Shown: positions 13,612 through 34,458 of the stretch, one piece after another
Layout of the letters: every line of letters starts with the position of its first letter
Position numbering within the stretch: position 1 is the stretch's first letter
Assembly: GCA_963790205.1 (NCBI GenBank)
Contig: CAWBNQ010000003.1
Location: 640,001-704,000, forward strand
Origin: Nitrospirota bacterium
GTDB taxonomy: Bacteria; Nitrospirota; UBA9217
Direction of reading: 5' to 3'
Length of the DNA stretch: 64,000 bases
Notes under the pieces: generated by a model
What the model was told of the DNA's origin: nothing
The model's input: only the letters and a program-made list of their open reading frames with translations
Databases searched by the model: none
Program-made: the position numbers and the translations under genes

Positions 13612-14481
13612 TTAGTACATCGGGTGGCACGCGACACAGATCGCGGGAAGGCGAAGTTTGTTCTTGCTGTCCGCTCCCTTTGCGGCTGCCTCACGCTGGA
13701 TGACTCCCTGCTGGTGCGGATTGTGGCAGGTGGAACAGGTGATGCGCCCTCTCGGGATGAGGGGGAGGATGACCATGTCACGCTCTTCGGCTTGATGCAT
13801 GCTGTTGAGCATCTCCGCAGAGGGCCTTACCAGAAAATGGGTGCTGAAGAACGGGTCAGGCATGGGCGGATGACAGCGCCAGCAGAGAAATCCGATGTCG
13901 GCCCTGAATTTCACGCTATCCGTATAATCTTTTTCCGGGTCAGGCATCTGTGAATGACACAGGAGACATACCGGTTTGCCGTTGACCTCTCTGAAATTAT
14001 TTTTATCGTCCAGCATCAGGTGAGGATTGATTCCTGCGTACCGTTCGCCCGAGTGGCACCGAAAGCAGATCTGCCGGCGATCCTTGGTATAGGGTCCGCC
14101 CCGCAATAGTTTCGGGGTCCCTTCCTTTCCGGGCCCGCCGTGAATCTCATGGCAGGTCAGGCACCTCACCTTGCCTTCGAATAAGGGGAAGGGGAACCCG
14201 GCAGTGACGGCTGGAGTAAAATCGACAGGATGATGGTTTTCTTGGTAGTCATGACAGTTGAGACAGGAGGTGGAGGGCTCGACGCCCGGGGCGAAGAGCG
14301 CTCCGCCCGGTTGGGGTTTTGCCGTTGCATGACACGCCACACAGAGCGTGTGCGGATTTTTGTACGCAGGGACGGAATAGACGGAATAGCCGGTATTTTG
14401 CGGCGTGATCAGCGCTTGCAGGCTGCAGGATGACGCCAGGATTGCCGTGGACAACACAAAGCATTTAACGAAAAAGCGCAT
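13612..14481 (-). CDS. Multiheme (8 x CxxCH) cytochrome c lipoprotein
   Basis: CVACH, CLNCH, CLTCH, CFRCH, CLLCH, CWRCH, CSTCH, CVACH; signal peptide with LASSC lipobox-like site. Confidence 0.9.
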   Translation of the reverse strand: MRFFVKCFVLSTAILASSCSLQALITPQNTGYSVYSVPAYKNPHTLCVACHATAKPQPGGALFAPGVEPSTSCLNCHDYQENHHPVDFTPAVTAGFPFPLFEGKVRCLTCHEIHGGPGKEGTPKLLRGGPYTKDRRQICFRCHSGERYAGINPHLMLDDKNNFREVNGKPVCLLCHSQMPDPEKDYTDSVKFRADIGFLCWRCHPPMPDPFFSTHFLVRPSAEMLNSMHQAEERDMVILPLIPRGRITCSTCHNPHQQGVIQREAAAKGADSKNKLRLPAICVACHPMY

Positions 14482-14620
14482 TTAAAATAATAACACAAGC
14501 GGCCGAATAAGTAAACACCCTGTTCCTTTTTTTGGCGCCGGATTTATCGGGTCAGCCACCCGCGGTGCTGACGCGATTCCGCTATCCGTGCGGGTGCATT
14601 GTTCAACCCTATGCAGTCTG

Positions 14621-15448
14621 TTATACCTTCAGGCTTTCCTTATACACATCTTTTTTAGGCAGGCCGAGCTCTTCCGCGGCGGCAGCGATGGCTTCTTTCT
14701 TGCTCAGGCCGCGATGCAGCATGAGGTTTTTGAGGAATTCCGCAGTGTCGATGTCCTGCTTAAGCGGCTCCGCTGATGCCCCGTGCACGATGACCGTGAA
14801 TTCTCCTTTTATCGTTCCGTGCTGCAACCGGCTCAGAAGCTCGGAAAGTGTTCCCCGGATCGTTTCTTCATGGATCTTGGTCAGCTCCCGGGTAACGACC
14901 GCCCGCCGATCGCCGAAGACTTCGAGCAGGTCCTCGACGGTCCCGATGATCTTATGCGGGGCTTCGTAGAAGATGATCGTGCGTTCTTCTTTGACAAGCT
15001 CCCGGAGACGTTTAAGCCGGGCCATACGCTTTGCCGGGAGAAAGCCTTCGAATACAAAGCGGTCCGTGGGAAGGCCGGAGATCGAAAGCGCCGCAATGGC
15101 CGCTGTAGCGCCGGGGATGGGGACCACGGGGATTTTCTGGTCTACGGCCAGGTTGATCAGGAAGTAACCGGGATCGGAGATGCCGGGAGTGCCTGCATCG
15201 GAAACGAGAGCGAGGTTCTTGCCTTCGAGGAGCCGTGCCGCGAGGACCGGGGCTTTCTCTTCTTTGTTATGGTCGTGATAGCTCGTGAGCTGCGTTTCTA
15301 TTTGATAGCGGTCGAGCAAATGCCTCGTATGGCGCGTGTCCTCGGCCGCGATCAAGTCGACTTCCTTGAGCACGCGGACCGCCCGGAGAGTGATGTCCTC
15401 GAGGTTCCCGATGGGGGTGGCGACTATGTAGAGTATTCCTGATTGCAT
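14621..15448 (-). CDS. rsmI: 16S rRNA (cytidine1402-2'-O)-methyltransferase
   Basis: LYIVATPIGNLEDITLRA, VSDAGTPGISDPG, RELTKIHEE. Confidence 0.95.
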   Translation of the reverse strand: MQSGILYIVATPIGNLEDITLRAVRVLKEVDLIAAEDTRHTRHLLDRYQIETQLTSYHDHNKEEKAPVLAARLLEGKNLALVSDAGTPGISDPGYFLINLAVDQKIPVVPIPGATAAIAALSISGLPTDRFVFEGFLPAKRMARLKRLRELVKEERTIIFYEAPHKIIGTVEDLLEVFGDRRAVVTRELTKIHEETIRGTLSELLSRLQHGTIKGEFTVIVHGASAEPLKQDIDTAEFLKNLMLHRGLSKKEAIAAAAEELGLPKKDVYKESLKV

Positions 15449-15461
15449 AAAGTCAAAGGCG

Positions 15462-15592
15462 GTTTCTCGCAAAGCTCGCAAAGGGCGCCAAGGAAACCAA
15501 AAACAAGAACAAGGATTTGTCTTTCAAACAAATCTTAATTCAGGTTTAATTCTTAGCTTTTCTTTGCGCCCTTTGCGAGCTTTGCGAGAAAC
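15462..15592. repeat. Empty CGCAAAG-type inverted-repeat element (copy A)
   Basis: 31-bp arms GTTTCTCGCAAAGCTCGCAAAGGGCGCCAAG and its reverse complement (1 mismatch) around an AT-rich spacer. Confidence 0.9.
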
Positions 15593-15641
15593 AGATCTGA
15601 TCTTTTGCTGTTTCTTTATTATCTTCTCGCGAGAAATAGTC

Positions 15642-17366
15642 TTAATAGCTTTTGTACCTGTTCGTGATCGGGAACCTTCTATCTTTCCCCAGTCCCCTTG
15701 GCGTGATCTTGACCCCGGGAGGGGCCTGGCGGCGTTTGTACTCGCTGGAATCCACGAGCCGGATCACGCGCTCCACGGTCTTCCGGTCGAAGCCCATCCT
15801 GATCATCTCGTCGAATTCCCTGTCGTCCTCGACATAGGCCTTGAGGATCGGGTCGAGCACCTCGTACTCGGGCAGGGAATCGCTGTCCTTCTGGTTCGGA
15901 CGGAGCTCCGCGGTCGGCGCCTTCACGAGGACGCGTTTCGGAATGACGGTCCTGCCCGCAAGGCGGTTGACGCACCTGCAGATGTCATAGACCAGGGTCT
16001 TGGGAACGTCCTTGATCACGGCAAAGCCCCCGGCCATGTCGCCGTAGAGCGTGGCATAGCCCGTGGACATCTCGCTCTTGTTGCCGGTGGTGAGCACGAG
16101 CCAGCCGAACTTGTTCGAGAGCGCCATGAGAATATTGCCCCTGATCCGCGCCTGCAGGTTCTCTTCGGTCACGTCCTGCTTCGTGTGCGAAAATATGCCG
16201 CGCAGGGTGTTGAGAAAGGCATTGAAGGGCTGGTGGATGGGGATGCTGAACATCTTAATGCCGAGAGTCCGCGCGAGCTCGGTCGCGTCCTCGCAGCTTT
16301 CGTCGGAGCTGAACTCCGACGGCATGAACACGCCGTGGACGTTTTCCCTGCCGATGGCCGCCACGGCGACGGCGGCAACGAGGGACGAGTCGATCCCGCC
16401 CGAAAGGCCGATGACCACGGACCTGAACCCGGTCTTTTTCATGTAATCCCGCGTCCCGAGGACGAGCGCGCGGTATACTTCTTCGCACAGCCTGTAGGGC
16501 CGCGCGATGCGTGCGGGAGGCAGCGGTTTTTTCCTCGCACCCGGCTTGTCCGAAATGACGACGGAATCGATCGTATCCCGGTGTTCGTCGAGGATCAGCT
16601 CTGACGTCGTGTCCGCGCCGCGGCGGGGCGGGCCGGGAAGTTTTATGTCGTAGGAGATAAGCTCTTCCTCGAACTGCTTTCCGGCCGCGAGCAGATTCCC
16701 CTTCGGGTCCAGGATCATGCTGTGGCCGTCGAAGACCAGCTCGTCCTGCCCGCCGACGGTGTTCGTGTACACGATGAAGACGTTGTTCTCTTTCGCGCGG
16801 AGGGCGAGCATCCGCCGGCGTTCTTTGCCTTTCCCCTTATGATAGGGCGAGGCGTTCACGGCTATGATGATCTCGGCGCCTGCCAGGGCCTGGGTACGGG
16901 CGGGACCGTCGGCGTACCAGATGTCCTCGCAAATGTTGACGCCGATATTCACGCCCTTGACCGTGATGACGGGGAAGCGCTTCCCCGGCTTGAAGTAGCG
17001 GTATTCATCGAACACGCCGTAGTTCGGGAGCAGCATCTTGTGATAGACATGGACGAGCTTGCCGTTGCTCATGATCGCCGCGGCGTCATAGATGTGGTCG
17101 TTCGAGTCCACGTATCCGACGATCGCCGTGATGCCGCGCGTCGCTCTCGTGATCTCCCTGAGCGTGCGCAGGTTGTCCTTCACGAATTGCGGCTTGAGAA
17201 TGAGGTCTTCGGGCGGATAGCCGGTGACGGCGAGCTCGGTGAAGGCGACGATATCGGCGCCCTGCTTCTTCGCGCGATCGATATACTCGATGATCTTGTC
17301 CCGGTTGCCCTTGAGGTCGCCCACAGTGGGGTTTATCTGGGCCATGGCGATGCGGAGTGTTCTCAT
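15642..17366 (-). CDS. nadE: Glutamine-dependent NAD+ synthetase
   Basis: Nitrilase-like domain (GYPPED, ICEDIW) plus LSGGIDS, NLQARIRG, TTGNKSE, EYKRRQ. Confidence 0.96.
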   Translation of the reverse strand: MRTLRIAMAQINPTVGDLKGNRDKIIEYIDRAKKQGADIVAFTELAVTGYPPEDLILKPQFVKDNLRTLREITRATRGITAIVGYVDSNDHIYDAAAIMSNGKLVHVYHKMLLPNYGVFDEYRYFKPGKRFPVITVKGVNIGVNICEDIWYADGPARTQALAGAEIIIAVNASPYHKGKGKERRRMLALRAKENNVFIVYTNTVGGQDELVFDGHSMILDPKGNLLAAGKQFEEELISYDIKLPGPPRRGADTTSELILDEHRDTIDSVVISDKPGARKKPLPPARIARPYRLCEEVYRALVLGTRDYMKKTGFRSVVIGLSGGIDSSLVAAVAVAAIGRENVHGVFMPSEFSSDESCEDATELARTLGIKMFSIPIHQPFNAFLNTLRGIFSHTKQDVTEENLQARIRGNILMALSNKFGWLVLTTGNKSEMSTGYATLYGDMAGGFAVIKDVPKTLVYDICRCVNRLAGRTVIPKRVLVKAPTAELRPNQKDSDSLPEYEVLDPILKAYVEDDREFDEMIRMGFDRKTVERVIRLVDSSEYKRRQAPPGVKITPRGLGKDRRFPITNRYKSY

Positions 17367-17413
17367 AAGGTTCTCACTAAGATAATTATAAAATCAACAA
17401 ATGCTGGAAGCAG

Positions 17414-17896
17414 GTTTCTCGCAAAGCTCGCAAAGGGCGCAAAGGGAGGCATAAGTCCAAGTTAAAATCAAAGGCCATTCGCGATACGGGTAATGCCATC
17501 CTTCATCAGTTCGACATTGAAATTGACAAGCAAACCCAGCTTCTTTTTAGAGAGCTTCAGGTAAGTCAATAATTGCTTCTTGTGAACCGGAATGACGTTT
17601 TCGATAGATTTTAATTCTATAATAACTTTGTCATCTACCATAACATCAGCTCTGGATCCGATGTCCATCGTGATTTCATCATACACAACAGGGACGTCTA
17701 CCTGGTTGGTAGCCTTGATGCCAAGTTTTTTAAGCTCATAAACGAGTGCAGCTTCATAAACAGACTCCAAAAGGCCAGGGCCGAGGGTCCTGTGAATTTT
17801 CACACACAGGTCAACAACAATTTTGGCTATTTCGTTTTCCGACAATACTATCGCTCCTCAGCCTTCCTTTGCGTCCTTAGCGAGCTTTGCGAGAAA
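17414..17896. mobile_element. Putative GxxExxY element: gene bracketed by about 36-bp CGCAAAG inverted repeats (copy B)
   Basis: Left arm 17415-17450 TTTCTCGCAAAGCTCGCAAAGGGCGCAAAGGGAGGC; right arm 17861-17896 is its reverse complement with 3 mismatches. Confidence 0.65.
17468..17845 (-). CDS. GxxExxY protein (PD-(D/E)XK nuclease-like)
   Basis: HRTLGPGLLESVYE, RADVMVDDKVIIELKS, QLLTYLK, GLLVNF; GAGGAG RBS before TTG; AT-richer than its neighbours. Confidence 0.93.
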   Translation of the reverse strand: MSENEIAKIVVDLCVKIHRTLGPGLLESVYEAALVYELKKLGIKATNQVDVPVVYDEITMDIGSRADVMVDDKVIIELKSIENVIPVHKKQLLTYLKLSKKKLGLLVNFNVELMKDGITRIANGL

Positions 17897-19054
17897 AATG
17901 ACTCTTCGCTTCTTCTATCACGTCCTTGAGCGGCACCTGTTTCTCCTCCGCGAGCCGTCTACAATCCTCATACTCCGGCGTGGCTGTCAGCACTTCCTCT
18001 CCACGCCTGCTTATCTTTACCCGGATCTTACCATATGTTGTATCGACTTCCTCGATCTCACGCGTCAGTTTCTTTCTGTCCACTTCCCGGATACGGACGC
18101 CGATGCTCGTGGTCTCTCGGAAGATGGTGTCGAGCATCGCTTCGGTTTTGGTCTTATCCGTGAGCACCGAGAGCAGGATTGCGGGCCTTCCTTTTTTCAT
18201 GATGATCGGCGTAAGATACGCGTCCTGCGCCCCCTGCTTCATGAAGTTTCTCGATGAGGTAATCATAGACCTGCGGGTTCATATCGTCAATGTTTGTTTC
18301 GATGACGATCGAGGTGTCCTCTTCATAGGCGGCGGCCGGTTCTCCGATCATGAGCCTCAGGACGTTCGGCTGGTCCGGAATTTCCCTGCCTCCCGCCCCA
18401 TGCGCTATGCGGCTTAACCTCATGTGGGGCAGGGGGCCGAACGATGAAGCCAGTGTGCTCAGGAGAACGGCCCCGGTCGGCGTGGTGAGTTCGAAGGGGA
18501 TCGAAGAGCCGTACGAGGGAATACCCTTGAGCAGCTCGGCCGTGGCAGGGGCGGGGACGGGCAGGGTCCCGTGGGCGGTCTTGATCGTACCCGACCCCAC
18601 GTTCACCGGCGAGCCGACAATGGCTGTGACATCGAGCAGCTCAAGGCCGATGACTGACCCGACGATATCCACGATCGCATCCACAGCGCCTACCTCGTGA
18701 AAGTGGACCTTGTCAGGCGTTGTGCCATGGACCCTGGCCTCCGCTTCTGCCAGCCGATCGAAAATAGTGATGCTTTTCTGCTTGAACGGACGAAGAGAGG
18801 GTAGATGCTTCGATCAACTTTTTTATATCCGCAAGATGGCGGGCAGGCTGCTCCTTCTCATCGAGGCAGACATGCACCTTGGTTGCCGGGATGCCGGAAC
18901 GCATCACCTTCAAGGCCGTGATCTCATATCCCGGCAAATTCAGCTTCTCCAGCTCCGCACGCAGGATTTCGATGGCCACACCCGCGTCCACGAGCGCACC
19001 CAGGGTCATGTCGCCGGATATGCCGGAAAAACAGTCGAAGTAAGCAAGGGTCAT
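17877..19054 (-). CDS. larC: Nickel-pincer cofactor biosynthesis protein LarC (two apparent +1 frameshifts, near 18785 and 18244)
   Basis: YFDCFSGISGDMTLGAL, VHFHEVGAVDAIVD, ELTTPTGA, ETNIDD, MKKGRP and PEYEDC spread over three ORF pieces. Confidence 0.9.
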
Positions 19055-19081
19055 AGTTTAAACCAAAATCGAAGGCTTGTC

Positions 19082-19240
19082 TCTCGCAAAGCTCGCAAAG
19101 AGAGGCATTTAAACAAGTAAAGCAAATTTAAGTTTTGTCTTAAAACCAAGAAAAACTAAGACTACTGCTTGCTTTTGGTTTTAAACGAAAAAAGATTCTG
19201 ACTCAAGATCCCCTTTGCGACCTTTGCGCCTTTGCGAGAA
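19082..19240. repeat. Empty CGCAAAG-type inverted-repeat element (copy C)
   Basis: TCTCGCAAAGCTCGCAAAG ... CTTTGCGACCTTTGCGCCTTTGCGAGA between larC and larB. Confidence 0.85.
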
Positions 19241-19254
19241 AAAAGGTCTTAGGC

Positions 19255-20007
19255 TTATTCTCCAAGAATATTTATCCTGTGCGCCAGCACTCCGGCCCCG
19301 AAGCCGTTGTCGATGTTCATCACGGCAATGCCCGCGGCGCAGGAGTTGAGCATGGTGAGCAGCGGGGCCAGCCCCTGGAACCCCGCGCCGTAACCCACGC
19401 TGGTTGGCACGGCGATCACGGGCTTGTCCACGAGTCCGCCCACGACCGAGGGGAGCGCGCCGTCCATGCCCGCGACAACGACGATCACCCGCGCCGCGTC
19501 GAGGACCTCCCGCTTGCTCAAGACGCGGTGGATGCCGGCCACGCCCACGTCGTACACGGTCTGCACCGTGCTGCCGAGCATATCCGCCGTGACCGCAGCC
19601 TCCTCGGCAACGGGAATGTCCGATGTGCCCGCGGTCAGGACAAGGACCATGCCATTGGTGAGAGTTTTTCTTTTATTCTGAATCACGATGGAGCGGGAGG
19701 CCTTGTGGTAGAGGGCGCGGCGGTCGAGCTTTTTGACCGCCTTATAAACCTGCTCGTCCGCCCGGGTAGCGAGGACATCGCTCTTATTGGCCAGCATGCG
19801 CTGCGCGATGCCGACGACCTGATCGATTGTCTTTCCCTCGCAGTAAATGACCTCGGGCATCCCGTGGCGCAGATGACGATGGTGGTCGATGTGCGCATAA
19901 ACGATGTCTTCGAAGGGCAGGTGCTTGAGCCGGTTGAGCGCGGCCTCGACATCGGTCTTGCCGTCGCGGACGCTTTGAAGAAGTTTGGTGAGGTCTGATT
20001 TATTCAT
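19255..20007 (-). CDS. larB: Nickel-pincer cofactor biosynthesis protein LarB (PurE-like)
   Basis: AGTSDIPVAEEA, DVGVAGIHR, AGMDGALPSVV, PTSVGYG, NIDNGFGA. Confidence 0.95.
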   Translation of the reverse strand: MNKSDLTKLLQSVRDGKTDVEAALNRLKHLPFEDIVYAHIDHHRHLRHGMPEVIYCEGKTIDQVVGIAQRMLANKSDVLATRADEQVYKAVKKLDRRALYHKASRSIVIQNKRKTLTNGMVLVLTAGTSDIPVAEEAAVTADMLGSTVQTVYDVGVAGIHRVLSKREVLDAARVIVVVAGMDGALPSVVGGLVDKPVIAVPTSVGYGAGFQGLAPLLTMLNSCAAGIAVMNIDNGFGAGVLAHRINILGE

Positions 20008-20017
20008 AGGGGCTATT

Positions 20018-20106
20018 TATCCACGGATTACGCAGATTTCACAGATTAAATCAAGGCCGGAATTCGTTGTCTTAAAATCTGTGGCCATCTGCGAAATCTG
20101 CGGATA
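20018..20106. repeat. 9-nt-periodic CRCAGAT-type inverted-repeat element
   Basis: TATCCACGGATTACGCAGATTTCACAGATT ... AATCTGTGGCCATCTGCGAAATCTGCGGATA. Confidence 0.8.
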
Positions 20107-20157
20107 GATCGGTTTAATGTCTTTTCTGAATGTCGCATTCGGCATTCCGCATTCGAA

Positions 20158-21163
20158 TCATTCTTCTTTCAACTCTCTGGACATAAGGTCTCTTACCGCC
20201 CGTTTCGGGTCCTTGCCCTCGTACAGGATCAGATAGACCTCATCCACGACCGGCATGTCGACGTTGAACTTTCTGGCCAGGTCCCGGGCCGCCCGGGCCG
20301 TCTTCACGCCTTCGGCCACGGTCTTGACGCCCTTCATGATATCGTCCAGCTTTTCACCCTTGCCGAGCCGCACGCCGAGCGTCCGGTTGCGCGACAAACC
20401 TCCCGTGCACGTGAGCACCAGATCGCCCATGCCGGCGAGACCGGAAAAGGTCTCGAGGTTGCCGCCCATGGCGACGCCGAGGCGGGCCATTTCTGCTAAG
20501 CCCCGCGTGAGCAGGGCCGCGGCGGTGTTGTAGCCGTAGCCCATGCCTTCGAGCACGCCGGCCGCGATGGCGACGACGTTCTTGAGCGAGCCGGCAAGCT
20601 CCACGCCGATGACATCGGGATTGGTATAAATGCGGAAATAGGCGTTGCTGAAGATTTCCTGCGCTTTCCTGCCGAGAGCGGGGTCGTACGAAGCGAGAGA
20701 GACCGCGGTGGGCATCTTTTGCGCCACTTCTTTGGCGAAGCTCGGGCCGGAGAGGAAGCAGAGCCGGTTATGATACTCGTTTCGGCAGGATGTCCCTGAA
20801 CACTTCCGAGAGCGGCATAAGCGTGTCGATCTCGATTCCTTTCGAGGCGCTCACGAGGACCGTATCGTCCGACAGAAACGGCGCGAATTGTCCGGACACG
20901 GCGCGCACGGTGTGGGAGGGGACAACGGAAAGGATCACAGCCCTGCCCGCGACGGCCGCTTCCATCGAAGCGGTCACCTTGATCGAGGCGGGCAGGGTGA
21001 ACCCGGGCAAATAGACCCGGTTCTCCCGGGTGCGCGACGTCTCCTCGGCCAGGTCCTTCTCGTACATCCAGAGGGTGACGTCGTGCCCCTTGTCCGCGAG
21101 CAGCATGGAAAGGGCCGTGCCCCATGCGCCTGCGCCGATTACCCCGATTCTCTCAGTCATCAT
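20158..21163 (-). CDS. gpsA: NAD(P)H-dependent glycerol-3-phosphate dehydrogenase (apparent +1 frameshift near 20781)
   Basis: IGAGAWGTAL, SASKGIE, LSGPSFA, GSLKNVVAIAAG, GDLVLTC..SRNR. Confidence 0.92.
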
Positions 21164-21292
21164 GGGCCATTATAAGGGTAATGAGATTGCCTGTCAAAAG
21201 GTTTATGGGGAAGGACAGGGAGAAGAACCTCCACTCTTCGGAAAAGGGGCAGTTTCAGGCTTTCGCCCGCGATCATTTGCAATGGGGCGGAT

Positions 21293-21342
21293 GCGCGGAT
21301 GAGCCGCGTGTTTTTCGCGGCGGTCTCGATCCGCTCGTTATG

Positions 21343-21343
<1 letters not shown>
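21293..21343 (-). other. Terminal, degenerate attC site
   Basis: Minus strand: GCATAAC (R'') at the stop codon, then a GC stem with extrahelical bases; R' box not recognisable. Confidence 0.65.
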
Positions 21344-21891
<548 letters not shown>

Positions 21892-21920
21892 TACGTAAGA
21901 GTACCTCTAATCATAGGTCA

Positions 21921-21979
21921 GCCTAACACGGTGTTGAGGGGCGGTGATTTTCCCGCCCCTCTCGGACACCAAGTTATAT
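21921..21979 (-). other. attC site (59 bp)
   Basis: Minus strand ATATAAC...GGTGTCCGAGAGGGGCGG/CCGCCCCTCAACACC...GTTAGGC. Confidence 0.88.
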
Positions 21980-22516
21980 CACACTCACGAGTAAACGTAA
22001 TATCCAATAAAGTGTGAATGACGCACCAATGAAAATTAATGTCCAAATTAAAGCGATAAGCCATTTTGATAATTGTACCGTTGGAATGACGGTGATAATT
22101 TTAGCCAAACCATCATCAGACTTTGCATAAGCATTGATTTTATCCCAAGTTGTAGGAGGAAAATATAAATATGAAATGGTAATTTGTTCTTTCGGAACTA
22201 AAACAGGTATAAGTAATTCTCCAGAACCATCATCGTTACGCTCAACGGAATATTTGATCTTTGGGAAAACGGTGATATTAGGTGGTAAATAATTATGTCC
22301 AACTCTGACGTTGTGGGCTGATTTATTCCCGGCATTGCGAAGGATAATGCTATGAGTAAAGACGACGGTCTTTTGAGCATCTTGAAGAGTAAAAGAAGAT
22401 ATATGGCCTATATAGGAAACGAGTTTTGATCGTGTTTCTGTGTAGTATTTAATAATTGTTCCGAGGAGGAGCGTAATGATTGGAGAGAGTAATTTAAGAA
22501 TTTGTTCGGTTGTCAT
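21974..22516 (-). CDS. Hypothetical membrane-anchored protein (gene cassette)
   Basis: AT-rich; N- and C-terminal hydrophobic helices; GGGAGG RBS; stop codon lies in the attC R'' box. Confidence 0.8.
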   Translation of the reverse strand: MTTEQILKLLSPIITLLLGTIIKYYTETRSKLVSYIGHISSFTLQDAQKTVVFTHSIILRNAGNKSAHNVRVGHNYLPPNITVFPKIKYSVERNDDGSGELLIPVLVPKEQITISYLYFPPTTWDKINAYAKSDDGLAKIITVIPTVQLSKWLIALIWTLIFIGASFTLYWILRLLVSVI

Positions 22517-22644
22517 AGAACCTCCCTTATCGTGTCCGCAATGTGGGTCCATTGTTATGCAAAAAGAAGTAATTTCAAATGACCCTAATGTAAAAACAAC
22601 AGATTGCGAATGCCAAAAATGCGGCTGGTCACAATATCACTCAC

Positions 22645-22699
22645 ATATAACGCGCCGGTCACGCGCCGCTTTTTAGCGCGTCGCTGTGGACCGGCAGGT
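22645..22699 (-). other. attC site interrupted by a group II intron (remainder at 24648-24652)
   Basis: Removing 22700-24647 restores ATATAACGCGCCGGTC...GACCGGCAGGT|TAAAA, a 60-bp attC. Confidence 0.85.
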
Positions 22700-24647
22700 G
22701 TACGCTCGGCACGGGCGTGAGCTAATGGGGTGCAAGTCCTCTGTACGAGAACCAGAGTAGCACAAGTACCAGCCCAAGGCAAGGGCGGAAGGGCGACCGA
22801 CCGTCTGAAGGAAGCCTAACGGCAAACGTGCGAGCCGACGGACAGAAACCGCATACAAGGCTTAGCCCTCGGGTGAGTCAGCACCACATGACGAAGCCCA
22901 CTGGTTCAGGGGATAGGGTAAATGCGGCGGTTGCGCACGGACAGTTCACGTTCTTATCCGGGGAGATCTGCGCGACATGCGATAGGATCGTCATGAGAGA
23001 ATCCGGGACGGGTCAACCCGGCAAGCAAGGCCCCGGCGTATCAGCGGCTGTCGCCTGATACGAGTCCCGCTTTCGGGAGATACGAATCAGACAGCATCTC
23101 ATGCCGAACCCCTGTAGCGCCTTCTTTGGAAACAGAGACGGTGAGCGCGCAGAAGTCAGCAGACGGCATAGTAGTCCCGGACTACTCGGGACGAAGGCCA
23201 GAACGCGGAAAGGAGGAAGGGCAATCCATAAGCTCTGGGACGGTGATGAGTCCGACACGGATGAGCCGATCCGGGCGCGTTATGGAGAGACAGCCCACTC
23301 GAATGACCACAGTGGAAGACGTTGTAGGCAGTGAGAACATGCAGCAGGCATGGCAGCGGGTCAAGGCGAACAAGGGAGCAGCCGGCATCGACGACATGTC
23401 GATTACGGACTATCCCGAATTCGCCAGGACCAACTGGCCAAGAATCAAAGCCTCCTTGCTGGACGGGACGTATGATCCCACTCCGGTCAAGAGGGTCGAG
23501 ATTCCGAAGGACAACGGGGGTACGAGGCTTCTCGGCATCCCCACGGTCTCCGATCGCGTTATTCAGCAAGCGATCACCCAGGTGCTTGTCCCGATCTTCG
23601 ATCCCCACTTCTCCGAATCGAGCTATGGGTACAGGCCGGGCCGCTCGGCGCATCAGGCTGTAAAGAAGGTGGTTGAGTTGATCAACCAAGGATACCGCTA
23701 CGCCGTTGACATCGATCTTGCGAAGTTCTTCGATAACGTCAATTGGGACGTGTTGATGAGCCGGGTCGGTAGACGCGTCACGGACAAGGGCATCCTCAAA
23801 CTGATCGGCAAATACCTTCGGGCCGGAGTCGTCGTAAACGGCAGGCTTACCCAGACCACCAAAGGAGTGCCGCAGGGCGGGCCGCTTTCGCCGTTCCTGT
23901 CGAACATTCTTCTGGATGATCTCGACAAAGAGTTGGAGAAACGGGGGCATCAGTTCTGCCGGTACGCCGACGACCTTATCATTCTGGTAAAGTCAAAGCG
24001 TGCCGGAGAGCGGGTGATGAAGAGCGTCACCACCTTCCTTGAAAAGAACCTCAAGGTGCAGGTGAACAGGGACAAGAGCAAGGTGGGAAGCGCGGAGTCC
24101 AGCATCTTCCTCAGCTTCACGTTCCATCTCAAGAGGCCCACTGTCTCCCGGAAGGCGTTCACGAACTTCAAGAATGAACTCAAGGACCTTACGGGCCGCA
24201 GCTGGGGTGTATCCATGAAGCACCGATACGATAAAATCCGGACCTACTTACAGGGCTGGATGAACTATTTCGGAATCGGTATGCGGTACAACGATGCGGT
24301 CGAACTGGATCAGCGGCTCCGAAGACGCATTCGGATGTGCTATTGGAAACAGTGGCGCACGACGAGAAAGCGCGTCGGGGAGCTGATGAAACGCGGGGTG
24401 AGTGAACATCGCGCAGTATCGGTCGGCATGAGCAGGAAGAGCTACTGGCATCTTGCTAAGAACGAAGCCATCAATGTCGGCCTGTCCAATGCCTATCTCA
24501 AGGAACAGGGGCTTACCTCGATCAGAACACTGTGGATCAAGATTCACCATCCGGCTACGGCCCGATAGTTTTCTGCGAATCGCCTAGTGCGGACCCGCAT
24601 GCTAGGTGGTGTGGGGGCTGGGGGCTAAACACCCCCGGCTACCCGAT
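22700..24647 (+). mobile_element. Group IIC-attC intron
   Basis: 5' end GTACG; short domain V with CGC triad and domain VI ending CTACCCGAT; encodes an RT; inserted antisense in attC. Confidence 0.9.
23126..24568 (+). CDS. ltrA: Group II intron reverse transcriptase/maturase (no endonuclease domain; true start probably further downstream)
   Basis: NKGAAGID, RLLGIPTVSDR, GVPQGGPLSP, RYADD, C-terminal LWIKIHHPATAR. Confidence 0.95.
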   Translation: METETVSAQKSADGIVVPDYSGRRPERGKEEGQSISSGTVMSPTRMSRSGRVMERQPTRMTTVEDVVGSENMQQAWQRVKANKGAAGIDDMSITDYPEFARTNWPRIKASLLDGTYDPTPVKRVEIPKDNGGTRLLGIPTVSDRVIQQAITQVLVPIFDPHFSESSYGYRPGRSAHQAVKKVVELINQGYRYAVDIDLAKFFDNVNWDVLMSRVGRRVTDKGILKLIGKYLRAGVVVNGRLTQTTKGVPQGGPLSPFLSNILLDDLDKELEKRGHQFCRYADDLIILVKSKRAGERVMKSVTTFLEKNLKVQVNRDKSKVGSAESSIFLSFTFHLKRPTVSRKAFTNFKNELKDLTGRSWGVSMKHRYDKIRTYLQGWMNYFGIGMRYNDAVELDQRLRRRIRMCYWKQWRTTRKRVGELMKRGVSEHRAVSVGMSRKSYWHLAKNEAINVGLSNAYLKEQGLTSIRTLWIKIHHPATAR

Positions 24648-24657
24648 TAAAATATGC

Positions 24658-25551
24658 TCATTTAGATTTCCAACTTATGCGGCGCAATAGGACGCCATCG
24701 TCAAGAGCGATAAGGTGATAAATATCTCCCTCTGAATCCACTGCAAATCTTTCATCGAAATTGCCCCGATATCTAATTTGAATTGGCTTTTCAATTTTCT
24801 TGGATTGCACATCACCATTAATTTGGTATTGTATCTTTATGTTTTTGTCCTTATTTTCGATTTGTACAGTTGTCGTTATTGCATAATTATTCTTTCGAGA
24901 GTTATTAGATTTGATGCGATAAAAAGTCCCTTCTTTGTCATACCAAGAGAAATGATCATGATTTGGATTCTTTACATATTTAAGGAAATTTCCATCAAAA
25001 TCATAAACTGCTGACTTTCCCGATCCTCCAATAACACAAGTAACATGGCCCATCTGTTCATCGCTGCTTATCTCAGAAAAATACTCTTCTGTCTTCGGGT
25101 TAAGCTGCTGAGCGCCAAATTTATTTAATATCTTGCCACCGGAGGATATTTTGTAAATATCGTCATTCAGCATATTATAATAAGGTGGCTTTGCTATGAG
25201 GGCGAAGAAGTTGTCATTCAAAATAGCGAATCGACCAGCAAGTCCTTGTTTGATCCAATCGAAACCGAGAGGGATCTTTCTAATGAACTTACCGTTTAAG
25301 TCGAAGACTTGAATTCGGTTATTCATAGAATCGAAAATATAAATATGACTTTTGTAAAGTTGAAAGTCTAGCGAATAGCCCAGTTCCGTTTTGCCAAGAG
25401 TTTCTCTACCAAATTCGCCGTCTTTGTCGCCCCAATTACCAACGATTAATATGTTGTCACTGATATTAGGGCCGCAAAATGCGGGCGAGGTATATAAACT
25501 GCAAAAAAGAACGATGATCATGACGTATTTCAGAACTTTCATGAATACCAC
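24658..25551 (-). CDS. Secreted NHL/beta-propeller-like hypothetical protein (gene cassette)
   Basis: Signal peptide; IYIFDSMNNRIQVFDLNGKF; FAVDSEGDIY; AT-rich. Confidence 0.75.
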   Translation of the reverse strand: MVFMKVLKYVMIIVLFCSLYTSPAFCGPNISDNILIVGNWGDKDGEFGRETLGKTELGYSLDFQLYKSHIYIFDSMNNRIQVFDLNGKFIRKIPLGFDWIKQGLAGRFAILNDNFFALIAKPPYYNMLNDDIYKISSGGKILNKFGAQQLNPKTEEYFSEISSDEQMGHVTCVIGGSGKSAVYDFDGNFLKYVKNPNHDHFSWYDKEGTFYRIKSNNSRKNNYAITTTVQIENKDKNIKIQYQINGDVQSKKIEKPIQIRYRGNFDERFAVDSEGDIYHLIALDDGVLLRRISWKSK

Positions 25552-33293: not shown

Positions 33294-34262
33294 ATGAAAT
33301 TCATAAAAAGATCGTTCCCGGTGGTTTTTCTGATGATCGTCGTTTCGTCCTGCGCGTCCACGCAGGCGCCCCCGGTGACGGGGGCGGCGCGTCCGAAGAT
33401 AGCGCTTGTGCTGGGCGGCGGCGCGGCCCGCGGCTTCGCGCACGTAGGCGTGATACGCGCGCTCGAGCAGGAGAAGATCCCGATCGACATGATCGTCGGC
33501 ACCAGCGTGGGCAGCCTCATCGGCGCGATCTATGCCAGCGACACGAACAGTTTCGATCTCGAATGGACCGCGTTCACCCTCGAAAAAGACGACCTCTTCG
33601 ACTACGCCATCTTCTCGGCGATCACGGGCATGGGACTGGTCAAGGGAGACAAGCTCGAAGACTTCGTGAAGGCCAAGATCCCGACCGCGAACATCGAAAA
33701 CCTCAAGTTGCCCTTTACCGCGGTCGCGACCGATCTCAACCGCGGCACGCGCGTGGTGCTCGACCGCGGGTCCGTGGCCAAGGCGGTGCATGCCAGCAGC
33801 GCCATCCCGGGAGTATTCAGCCCCGTCGATTATCAGGGCAGGCTTCTTGTGGATGGCGGCATCGTGGACAATATCCCGATCTCCGTGGCCAGGGACAAGG
33901 GCGCGGACATCGTGATCGCCGTCGACATCAGCGAGAACGTGACGAATTTCAACATTACCAATCTCGTGGACGTCGTTCTCCAGTCCGCGAACATCATGTT
34001 CAATGAAAGCGTGAAGAACAGGAAAAAGGACGCCGACGTGCTCATCACGCCGGCTGTGGGGGACGTGGGCATGCTCGATTTCACCCAGAAGAAGCGGTGT
34101 ATGCAGGCCGGCATCGACGCGGCGCAAAAGGCCATGCCGGAGATCAGGGAAGAAGATCGAAGAGTGGGAGAAAAAGGCGGCGCAGAAATGAGCCAACTAC
34201 CGATACAGAATAAACCACAGAGGCACAGAGACTTTCCAATCTACAAGTCGGCCTTATTATAA
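33294..34262 (+). CDS. Patatin-like phospholipase lipoprotein (true stop probably about 34191, after a +1 error near 34148)
   Basis: VSSC lipobox, GGGAARG, GTSVG, DGG. Confidence 0.9.
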   Translation: MKFIKRSFPVVFLMIVVSSCASTQAPPVTGAARPKIALVLGGGAARGFAHVGVIRALEQEKIPIDMIVGTSVGSLIGAIYASDTNSFDLEWTAFTLEKDDLFDYAIFSAITGMGLVKGDKLEDFVKAKIPTANIENLKLPFTAVATDLNRGTRVVLDRGSVAKAVHASSAIPGVFSPVDYQGRLLVDGGIVDNIPISVARDKGADIVIAVDISENVTNFNITNLVDVVLQSANIMFNESVKNRKKDADVLITPAVGDVGMLDFTQKKRCMQAGIDAAQKAMPEIREEDRRVGEKGGAEMSQLPIQNKPQRHRDFPIYKSALL

Positions 34263-34458
34263 TAAATTTCATGTACCAACTTTGATGTATTCGTAAGAAA
34301 TAAAAATCCACCGCGGAGACGCAGAGAATAAAAATTAATTGGTTTCCTCCGCGCCCTCCGCGACTCTGCGGTTAAATCCGACTTTTTACGATTTTACCGG
34401 CTTTAAAAGACGGCATCAGGAGGCTTGTCCTTTAATCTTTCTCTGTGTCTCTGTGGTT
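34213..34458. repeat. Three nested inverted-repeat pairs
   Basis: Outer AACCACAGAGGCACAGAGA, middle TCGTAAGAAA/ACTTTTTACGA, inner ACCGCGGAGACGCAGAG. Confidence 0.75.

Follow-up and report, generated by a model that had tools for sequence, protein, structure and literature searches.

A predicted nuclease gene of the GxxExxY family and its inverted arrays of seven-base words form a cassette that is replaced in place in Nitrospirota

In a 64,000 nt stretch of a Nitrospirota contig (CAWBNQ010000003.1, positions 640,001 to 704,000; hereafter the window), each of the gaps in the gene run larB-larC-nadE-rsmI contains a pair of inverted repeat arms, and the pair between larC and nadE encloses a short gene of the GxxExxY family (Table 1). 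The gene order, established from open reading frames (ORFs) and profile matches, agrees with the preliminary description of this locus, which had placed the copies in successive gaps of the run. The arms of the cassette lie 410 nt apart and, as first reported, differ at 3 of 36 positions. The larC stop codon (TAA, 17877-17879) is indeed supplied by an arm word, CGCTAAG, and constitutes one of these three mismatches. The gene was also correctly recognised as AT-richer than its surroundings, with a GC content of 0.42 against 0.57-0.62 for the neighbouring genes; that of the two gene-less spacers is 0.27-0.28. All eight matches to the pattern TCTCGCAAAGNNCGCNAAG in the window fall within the three elements, and none was found in 100 dinucleotide shuffles. 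A promoter and terminator scan of 15400-19300 gave no excess over shuffles, and the only matches to Rfam covariance models across 14500-24700 were to a group II intron (22787-23199), with none at the cassette. The single inward-pointing word just before the nadE start, similar versions of which occupy the same place in many relatives, is likely to be the remnant of an earlier arm.

The gene-less copy between nadE and rsmI is as originally described, with a single mismatch between its 31 bp arms (15462-15492 and 15562-15592). That between larB and larC, first placed at 19082-19240, is a genuine pair, but a less symmetrical one, with one side made up of two words spaced by 9 nt and the other of three spaced by 9/8 nt. 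The proposal that the spacers are unrelated does not survive for this second copy: its spacer aligns with those of five other gene-less copies on three other contigs, the distal flanks of which are unrelated, and gene-less units are therefore copied whole. When an arm is defined generally as a run of words of the form C-R-C-N-R-A-K spaced by 8, 9 or 10 nt, the genome from which the window comes contains 388 word runs, as against 106-132 in local shuffles. The words are tandem and non-palindromic, with leaders of the TCT, TCA or AAC type. Same-class runs pair in a fixed orientation, with 66 pairs facing inward (median spacer 52 nt) and only two outward. Relatedness between spacers respects the class of the arms: 24 of 349 within-class pairs score at least 15, compared with none of 1082 across classes.

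Eight copies of the gene, two of them partial, were detected in this genome by tblastn. Each of the other seven shares 31-62% identity with the query, such that no near-identical copies at several sites exist in the genome. Six of the eight lie inside inward-facing arm pairs, representing four word classes, and the arm classes match the resident genes; the remaining two have one arm or degenerate arms. One copy (G000:C6:37818-38090) matches over its first 55 residues only and then continues into unrelated sequence, with a second arm within 240 nt. A palindrome at 15625-15634, TCTCGCGAGA, beside the nadE-rsmI element, resembles the left end fused to the right end and was considered as an excision footprint; it was dropped because this is its sole intergenic copy in the genome (0.7 expected) and related fused-end words are not enriched.

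The enrichment of arms around GxxExxY genes extends to other genomes. Of 80 loci drawn from GTDB, five were dropped for short flanks; in 41 of the remaining 75 the flanks match as inverted repeats with a score of at least 15; random windows reach this score in 10 of 750 cases and cross pairs in 354 of 5550, and direct-orientation matches are found at seven of the 75 loci. Adding 100 loci from the window's family, together with the copies in its own genome, raised the set to 189, with 181 full proteins, 178 of them unique, and 170 with long flanks. Both arms are present at 86 of these 170 loci and at least one at 139, with three having both arms reversed; shuffled flanks never yielded both. Where both arms are present they agree with one another at base 2 in 84 of 86 loci, at base 5 in 85, at base 7 in 84 and in period in 83, compared with shuffled means of 38-60. 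A held-out set of 87 loci yielded 76 proteins, and 36 of its 67 loci with long flanks again had both arms.

The number of arms also follows the presence of the gene. Across 64 genomes of the family, 12 of the 13 without a detected gene contain 0-10 CGCVAAG doublets, and the 51 with one contain 0-114, the medians being 0.65 and 9.0 per Mb (rho 0.58 for the number of arms against the number of genes); p-values for such counts are overstated because related genomes are not independent. A second word class occurs 0-6 times in the same 13 gene-free genomes, and within one genus (g19) doublets number 0-3 in genomes without the gene and 3-52 in those with it. The family itself is abundant, a protein search returning at least 8000 GxxExxY/PDDEXK_3 candidates and a metagenome scan giving an estimate of approximately 39,000 stretches with a pattern match. 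Among named relatives, the closest carry the label Nitrospirota, except for one record labelled Betaproteobacteria.

The history of the unit can be followed at the larC-nadE site, for which 42 orthologous loci were compared, representing 40 of the 64 family genomes and two outgroups. The gene or a piece of it is present at 23, and was called intact at 15 of these; the other loci are empty, contain only arms with other words, or hold another gene. Hence all three of the allelic states suggested by the preliminary description (empty, arm-only and full) occur, and the case envisaged there as refuting it, a gene fixed and syntenic in relatives lacking the arms, is not what is observed. The host tree requires at least 12 changes in cassette presence. 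Furthermore, the cassettes divide into a CGCAGAG clade of seven and a CGCAAAG group of 16 that cut across this tree. In each of two pairs of sister hosts (G052/G053 and G071/G074), the nadE windows of which are 87-100% identical, one cassette of each group is found, the two being only 62% and 68% identical and having different words; the distantly related hosts G007 and G057 carry cassettes that are 90% identical. Host trees forcing cassette-mates together are rejected by the approximately unbiased (AU) test (p = 1e-39 and 5e-44). That sister hosts have different cassettes while distant hosts have near-identical ones means that the unit is replaced in place, with the gene and both arms travelling together and substituting for one another at one site. 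In G047, and perhaps in G052, the exchanged tract extends about 90-135 nt into larC. Beyond the arms, one-word stubs point inward in 30 of 225 outer flanks and outward in six; both the inward stubs and the nested elements in the window (Table 1) fit with repeated insertion into older elements. A small ORF that looks to encode a secreted product lies alone in the larC-nadE gap of G016 (L124), and one of similar appearance comes after the cassette in G065 (L255).

Such persistence at a single site, over a long time and in many genera, combined with a median dN/dS of 0.10 (from the seven of 105 pairs with dS below 1.5) indicating purifying selection, would also be expected of a domesticated host factor. 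Under this alternative, the protein would bind the arms for a host purpose, such as screening DNA that enters the cell or the organisation or regulation of operons, with ordinary homologous recombination at repeat-rich gaps accounting for the swaps. The gene's rarity on plasmids (6 of 72,556), its absence from the 50,697 phage records searched and the five loci in IMG/VR are consistent with such a role, and there are precedents in the argument that RAYTs are domesticated (PMC5581495) and in the modulation of transformation by SsnA (PMC11893778). It nevertheless appears quite improbable in view of how frequently the gene is lost or decays, as seen in the intact calls, state changes and gene-free genomes above, and of the up to 13 divergent matches per genome. 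The unit also intrudes into the coding end of larC, and the larC gene of G021 is fused directly to RIANGI, the tail of GxxExxY, which is followed by one arm.

The protein matches TIGR04256 with 138 bits (cut-off 35; E = 1e-40) and PF13366 with 133 bits (cut-off 22), and profile searches with it returned only these two families, with neither an HUH-Y1 nor a GIY-YIG (cd10448) domain. The structure was predicted with high scores (pLDDT 95, pTM 0.88). In a structure comparison (VIA) the top rows were largely PD-(D/E)XK proteins, the best being 3ijm (Z 8.5, root-mean-square deviation 3.1 over 99 residues); Foldseek gave no match at E ≤ 0.001, its best being the Cas4 protein SSO0001. No solved relative was found by sequence (best E 0.66), and a protein atlas search, which did not include PF13366 clusters, gave no usable match. 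Residues E27, D67, E77 and K79 are conserved in approximately 100% of the 178 proteins. Profile matches, conserved residues and structural matches thus agree with the superfamily assignment originally made, and the model predicts a PD-(D/E)XK fold with an intact active site.

Variation in the words is accompanied by variation in the protein. Associations between residues and bases were studied at 143 loci on a quick LG+G4 tree built from residues 20-109, with the candidate columns left out. A hydrophobic residue five positions after R120 (L125 in the window's protein) accompanies G at base 2 in 70 of 80 loci with G and in none of 62 with A; of 15 independent pairs on the tree, 11 change in the same way and none in the opposite. 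An A at base 5 goes with V, L or F at residue 11 of helix 1 (along with residues 7 and 8 of the same helix) in 8.2 of 11 pairs. Other columns, coded as favourably, have a median of 1.6-1.7. When the rules were fixed and applied to held-out loci, base 2 was called correctly in 54 of 61 cases and base 5 in 51 of 61, against a majority baseline of 46.

Whether such words would be read in duplex DNA, as a hairpin or in RNA can be judged from how they vary. Mismatches expected from sense-strand hairpins show no excess of G-U over A-C, either in the words (20 versus 23) or in gene-less copies (15 versus 24). Linker positions are paired in 112 of 194 cases, and in 21 of 91 in gene-less copies. The sense strand forms the more stable fold in 22 of 48 cases and the other strand in 26. 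This lack of G-U or strand bias favours a double-stranded reading over RNA hairpins; with word and spacing both conserved, as they are for duplex protein sites, the arms resemble series of binding words in double-stranded DNA. Selection for an RNA hairpin is not supported by the same counts.

The possibility that the substrate is single-stranded or cruciform, with the arms forming a hairpin for the protein to cut, much as NTS is cut by SsnA and REPs by TnpA-REP, has more to recommend it. The arm pairs face inward and are closely spaced, they give stable folds on both strands (-43 to -73 kcal/mol), the nearest Foldseek matches include Cas4 and exonucleases, and both known analogues act on single-stranded DNA (PMC11893778; PMC8266576). 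However, the words are not palindromes, the linkers between them are poorly complementary, G-T is not above A-C, the arms of the cassette are 410 nt from one another, and SsnA is described as recognising one strand only (PMC11893778), whereas there is no strand bias here; this alternative is consequently regarded as unlikely. An element acting at the RNA level, with the arms pairing in the operon transcript and being cut out, or serving as processing or stability signals, in the manner of intervening sequences, and with the protein acting on RNA, might be suggested by the 48 of 60 gene-less pairs that lie between co-directional genes (compared with 1617 of 2402 background gaps, using crude ORF calls) and by weaker fold matches that include tRNA-splicing endonucleases (Z about 5). 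Beyond the missing G-U excess and sense-strand folding advantage, an RNA role alone leaves the dispersed DNA copies and the swaps unexplained, making this very improbable.

Alongside the observed anatomy, fixed orientation, matching words, shared spacers, tree conflict, purifying selection and covariation, the explanation considered probable, albeit with some reserve, is that the gene together with its pair of inverted word arrays is a unit replaced in place, the protein of which likely binds the words in duplex DNA and is likely to cut the arms or close to them, with host recombination swapping cassettes and copying gene-less pairs. The protein would bind the seven-base words through helix 1 and its C-terminal tail, with approximately one subunit per word. 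A cut made at or near the arms would be repaired by host recombination from another element, giving a cassette swap at occupied sites, and the same recombination could seed gene-less arm pairs in other intergenic gaps. Repair tracts of variable length may leave one-word stubs and no target duplication. By analogy with the action that RAYT is thought to have on REPINs, the protein may act in trans on gene-less copies. The original proposal of a full element with non-autonomous derivatives, similar to REPIN/RAYT but with a PD-(D/E)XK protein, is supported, arms being enriched around the gene in other genomes and the gene not being fixed without arms in relatives; the element would then be mobilised by this protein. 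A broader claim, that this is a widespread, undescribed type of selfish DNA in which a 125-residue PD-(D/E)XK nuclease with a simple residue-to-base code reads its own seven-base arrays in duplex DNA, cuts the arms, seeds gene-less copies throughout the genome and evicts cassettes with rival words from shared sites, is given slightly less than an even chance.

Several results weigh against this explanation. The association of base 7 with residues 19 and 117 is not significant, with only five pairs (p 0.13-0.25), and the held-out loci included one T case at this base; restricting the test to well-supported (starred) branches leaves three independent pairs and no significance, and the rules of the code were chosen after the data had been seen. 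Similarly, the groups for the AU test were named after both trees had been inspected. Co-conversion of larC is absent from G074/G071, and the 3' end of larC is variable in cassette-free pairs too. Among all loci, 58 of 82 homologue pairs more than 80% identical share their flanks, which implies some arrival at new sites but more frequent retention of old ones. Most close homologues being syntenic, the complete cassette only rarely inserts elsewhere, and the gene persists and is swapped at one site rather than hopping freely like an insertion sequence. No joint that removes the cassette was present among the listed joints of four public DNA runs, for which contigs were searched. Strict arms are missing from 31 of the 170 loci, and reversed arms were found on both sides in 10 of the 67 held-out loci. 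The same gaps hold other repeat systems in relatives: between larB and larC, G021 has a GIY-YIG gene (PF01541) between palindromic repeats (L127:860-1350) and G005 (L114) one that is broken and interrupted, while other relatives have 7-base periodic arrays in these gaps. Several repeat systems therefore compete for the same junctions, and another process may be choosing the sites.

The correspondence between words and genes also has exceptions. The advance prediction that a genome's dominant word should be that of its gene class passed in G012, held partially in G054 and failed in G001 and G043, in which only broken GxxExxY genes, of other word classes, were found; G044 has 109 doublets and no gene was found, this genome being 65% complete. 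These three genomes, in which arms abound but no gene of their class was found intact, are what would be expected if the arms were the ends of miniature inverted-repeat transposable elements (MITEs) moved by another transposase, GxxExxY being only cargo. There is, however, no sign of target-site duplication around the 66 arm pairs of the window's genome, the mean longest direct match being 4.55 against 4.56 in cross pairs. Moreover, residues and bases covary repeatedly over the protein tree, and do so in held-out loci as well, and in one genus the number of arms tracks whether the gene is present, leaving the cargo explanation with very little probability.

Similarities to several known systems are evident. 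In REPIN/RAYT systems a nuclease gene is accompanied by cognate short repeats and dispersed gene-less inverted doublets, with several classes per genome (PMC3116915; PMC5581495; PMC8266576). The cassette resembles these in its repeat-flanked nuclease gene, in intergenic gene-less doublets that match the gene's repeats, in the presence of several divergent gene and repeat classes per genome, and in the co-evolution of enzyme and repeat. By contrast, the RAYT enzyme is of the HUH-Y1 type rather than PD-(D/E)XK, its repeat is a GTAG-tagged palindrome (CGTC in a related REP class) rather than a tandem array of non-palindromic 7-mers. RAYTs are described as mostly vertical, rarely duplicated and rare on plasmids; GxxExxY is likewise rare on plasmids and its copies in the window's genome are divergent, but the trees conflict at larC-nadE, where the cassette is repeatedly replaced along with its arms. 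In the Ssn/SRM system (NTS-ssnA-NTS) the nuclease is of the GIY-YIG type and the SRM consists of one hairpin, which is cut in single-stranded form and on one strand (PMC11893778). Common features are a very small gene for a single-domain nuclease with its own dispersed repeat on either side, and the many enzyme and repeat pairs across phyla, but a PD-(D/E)XK fold, periodic word arrays and no strand bias are found here. TIRtron/TIRYT elements and MITEs likewise involve a gene within terminal inverted repeats that also form gene-less families (PMC3733652); TIRYTs are, however, tyrosine (HUH) transposases (PMC3733652), and the arms here are periodic and without target duplication. The cassette thus works like REPIN/RAYT or Ssn/SRM yet belongs to neither, differing from both, as from the TIRtrons, in enzyme family and from REPIN/RAYT also in repeat structure.

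Homing endonuclease genes offer a different parallel, as these persist at one site by gain, decay and replacement, with some co-conversion of the flanks. Replacement of the cassette is similarly faithful to the site, with co-conversion in two of the tested trios but not in G074/G071. The differences are that there is no intron or intein, that the words are inside the element rather than at an empty target site, that gene-less derivatives occur genome-wide and that it is occupied sites that are replaced.

The remaining features of the window are included in Table 1. The larC gene is broken into three ORFs by two single-base differences, which are absent from the contigs of two related runs (X1 and X2, from one study), these being one base shorter at both breaks; the split is probably an assembly error or specific to the strain. 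The gene for glycerol-3-phosphate dehydrogenase is likewise split into two ORFs, possibly by another single-base assembly error. Upstream of larB, a 7-base periodic run adjoins the arm pair of the CGCAGAT class. A group II intron, with Rfam matches to D1-D4, is adjoined by an ORF with hydrophobic ends and no Pfam match, and a multiheme cytochrome c gene lies downstream of rsmI.

Table 1. Positions of the cassette, the gene-less elements and other features within the window
Feature	Position	Strand	Description
GxxExxY gene	17468..17845	-	125 aa, TTG start; predicted PD-(D/E)XK nuclease
Cassette 5' arm	17861..17896	-	TTTCT leader, then CGCAAAG/CGCTAAG/CGCAAAG at 9-nt spacing; overlaps last larC codons
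Cassette 3' arm (inverted copy)	17415..17450	+	CGCAAAG three times, words at 17420, 17429 and 17438
Single-word stub	17372..17381	+	TCT-CACTAAG, inward-pointing, just before nadE start
Gene-less arm pair, nadE-rsmI gap	15462..15592		3+3 CGCAAAG-type words; 69-nt AT-rich spacer
Gene-less arm pair, larB-larC gap	19080..19240		2+3 words; 112-nt spacer; six-copy spacer family on four contigs
Gene-less arm pair, gap upstream of larB	20022..20102		Other word class: CACGGAT/CGCAGAT/CACAGAT
Nested gene-less elements	34216..34455		CGCGGAG/CGCAGAG pair (34312-34370) within CACAGAG pair
larC	17877..19054	-	Host gene, upstream neighbour; shows as three ORFs
nadE	15642..17366	-	Host gene, downstream neighbour; glutamine-dependent NAD+ synthase
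7-base periodic run	20133..20157		CGCATTC-type
Glycerol-3-phosphate dehydrogenase gene	20158..21163	-	Two ORFs, 20768-21163 and 20158-20727
Multiheme cytochrome c gene	13612..14481	-	Paired_CXXCH_1
Group II intron	22787..24568	+	480-aa reverse transcriptase/maturase ORF, 23126-24568
ORF adjoining group II intron	21974..22552	-	192 aa

PDDEXK_3 (PF13366) is listed as being of unknown function (PMC3424549), and GxxExxY receives a passing mention in a preprint (bioRxiv 10.1101/2021.01.26.428298). In the full-text literature no description of arms or repeats linked to GxxExxY genes was found, most subscription papers and supplements being outside the coverage of this search. The cassette system is real and widespread, and apparently unpublished. 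A very common protein family thereby gains a candidate substrate, a predicted active site and candidate switches of specificity at single residues, and its function is therefore directly testable with oligonucleotides. If the explanation favoured here is true, GxxExxY would represent a third enzyme solution, after the HUH RAYT and the GIY-YIG Ssn proteins, to the way of life of a nuclease with its cognate repeats; it would also account for an abundant class of intergenic repeat and, through its natural variants, offer a sequence-specific nuclease scaffold of very small size.

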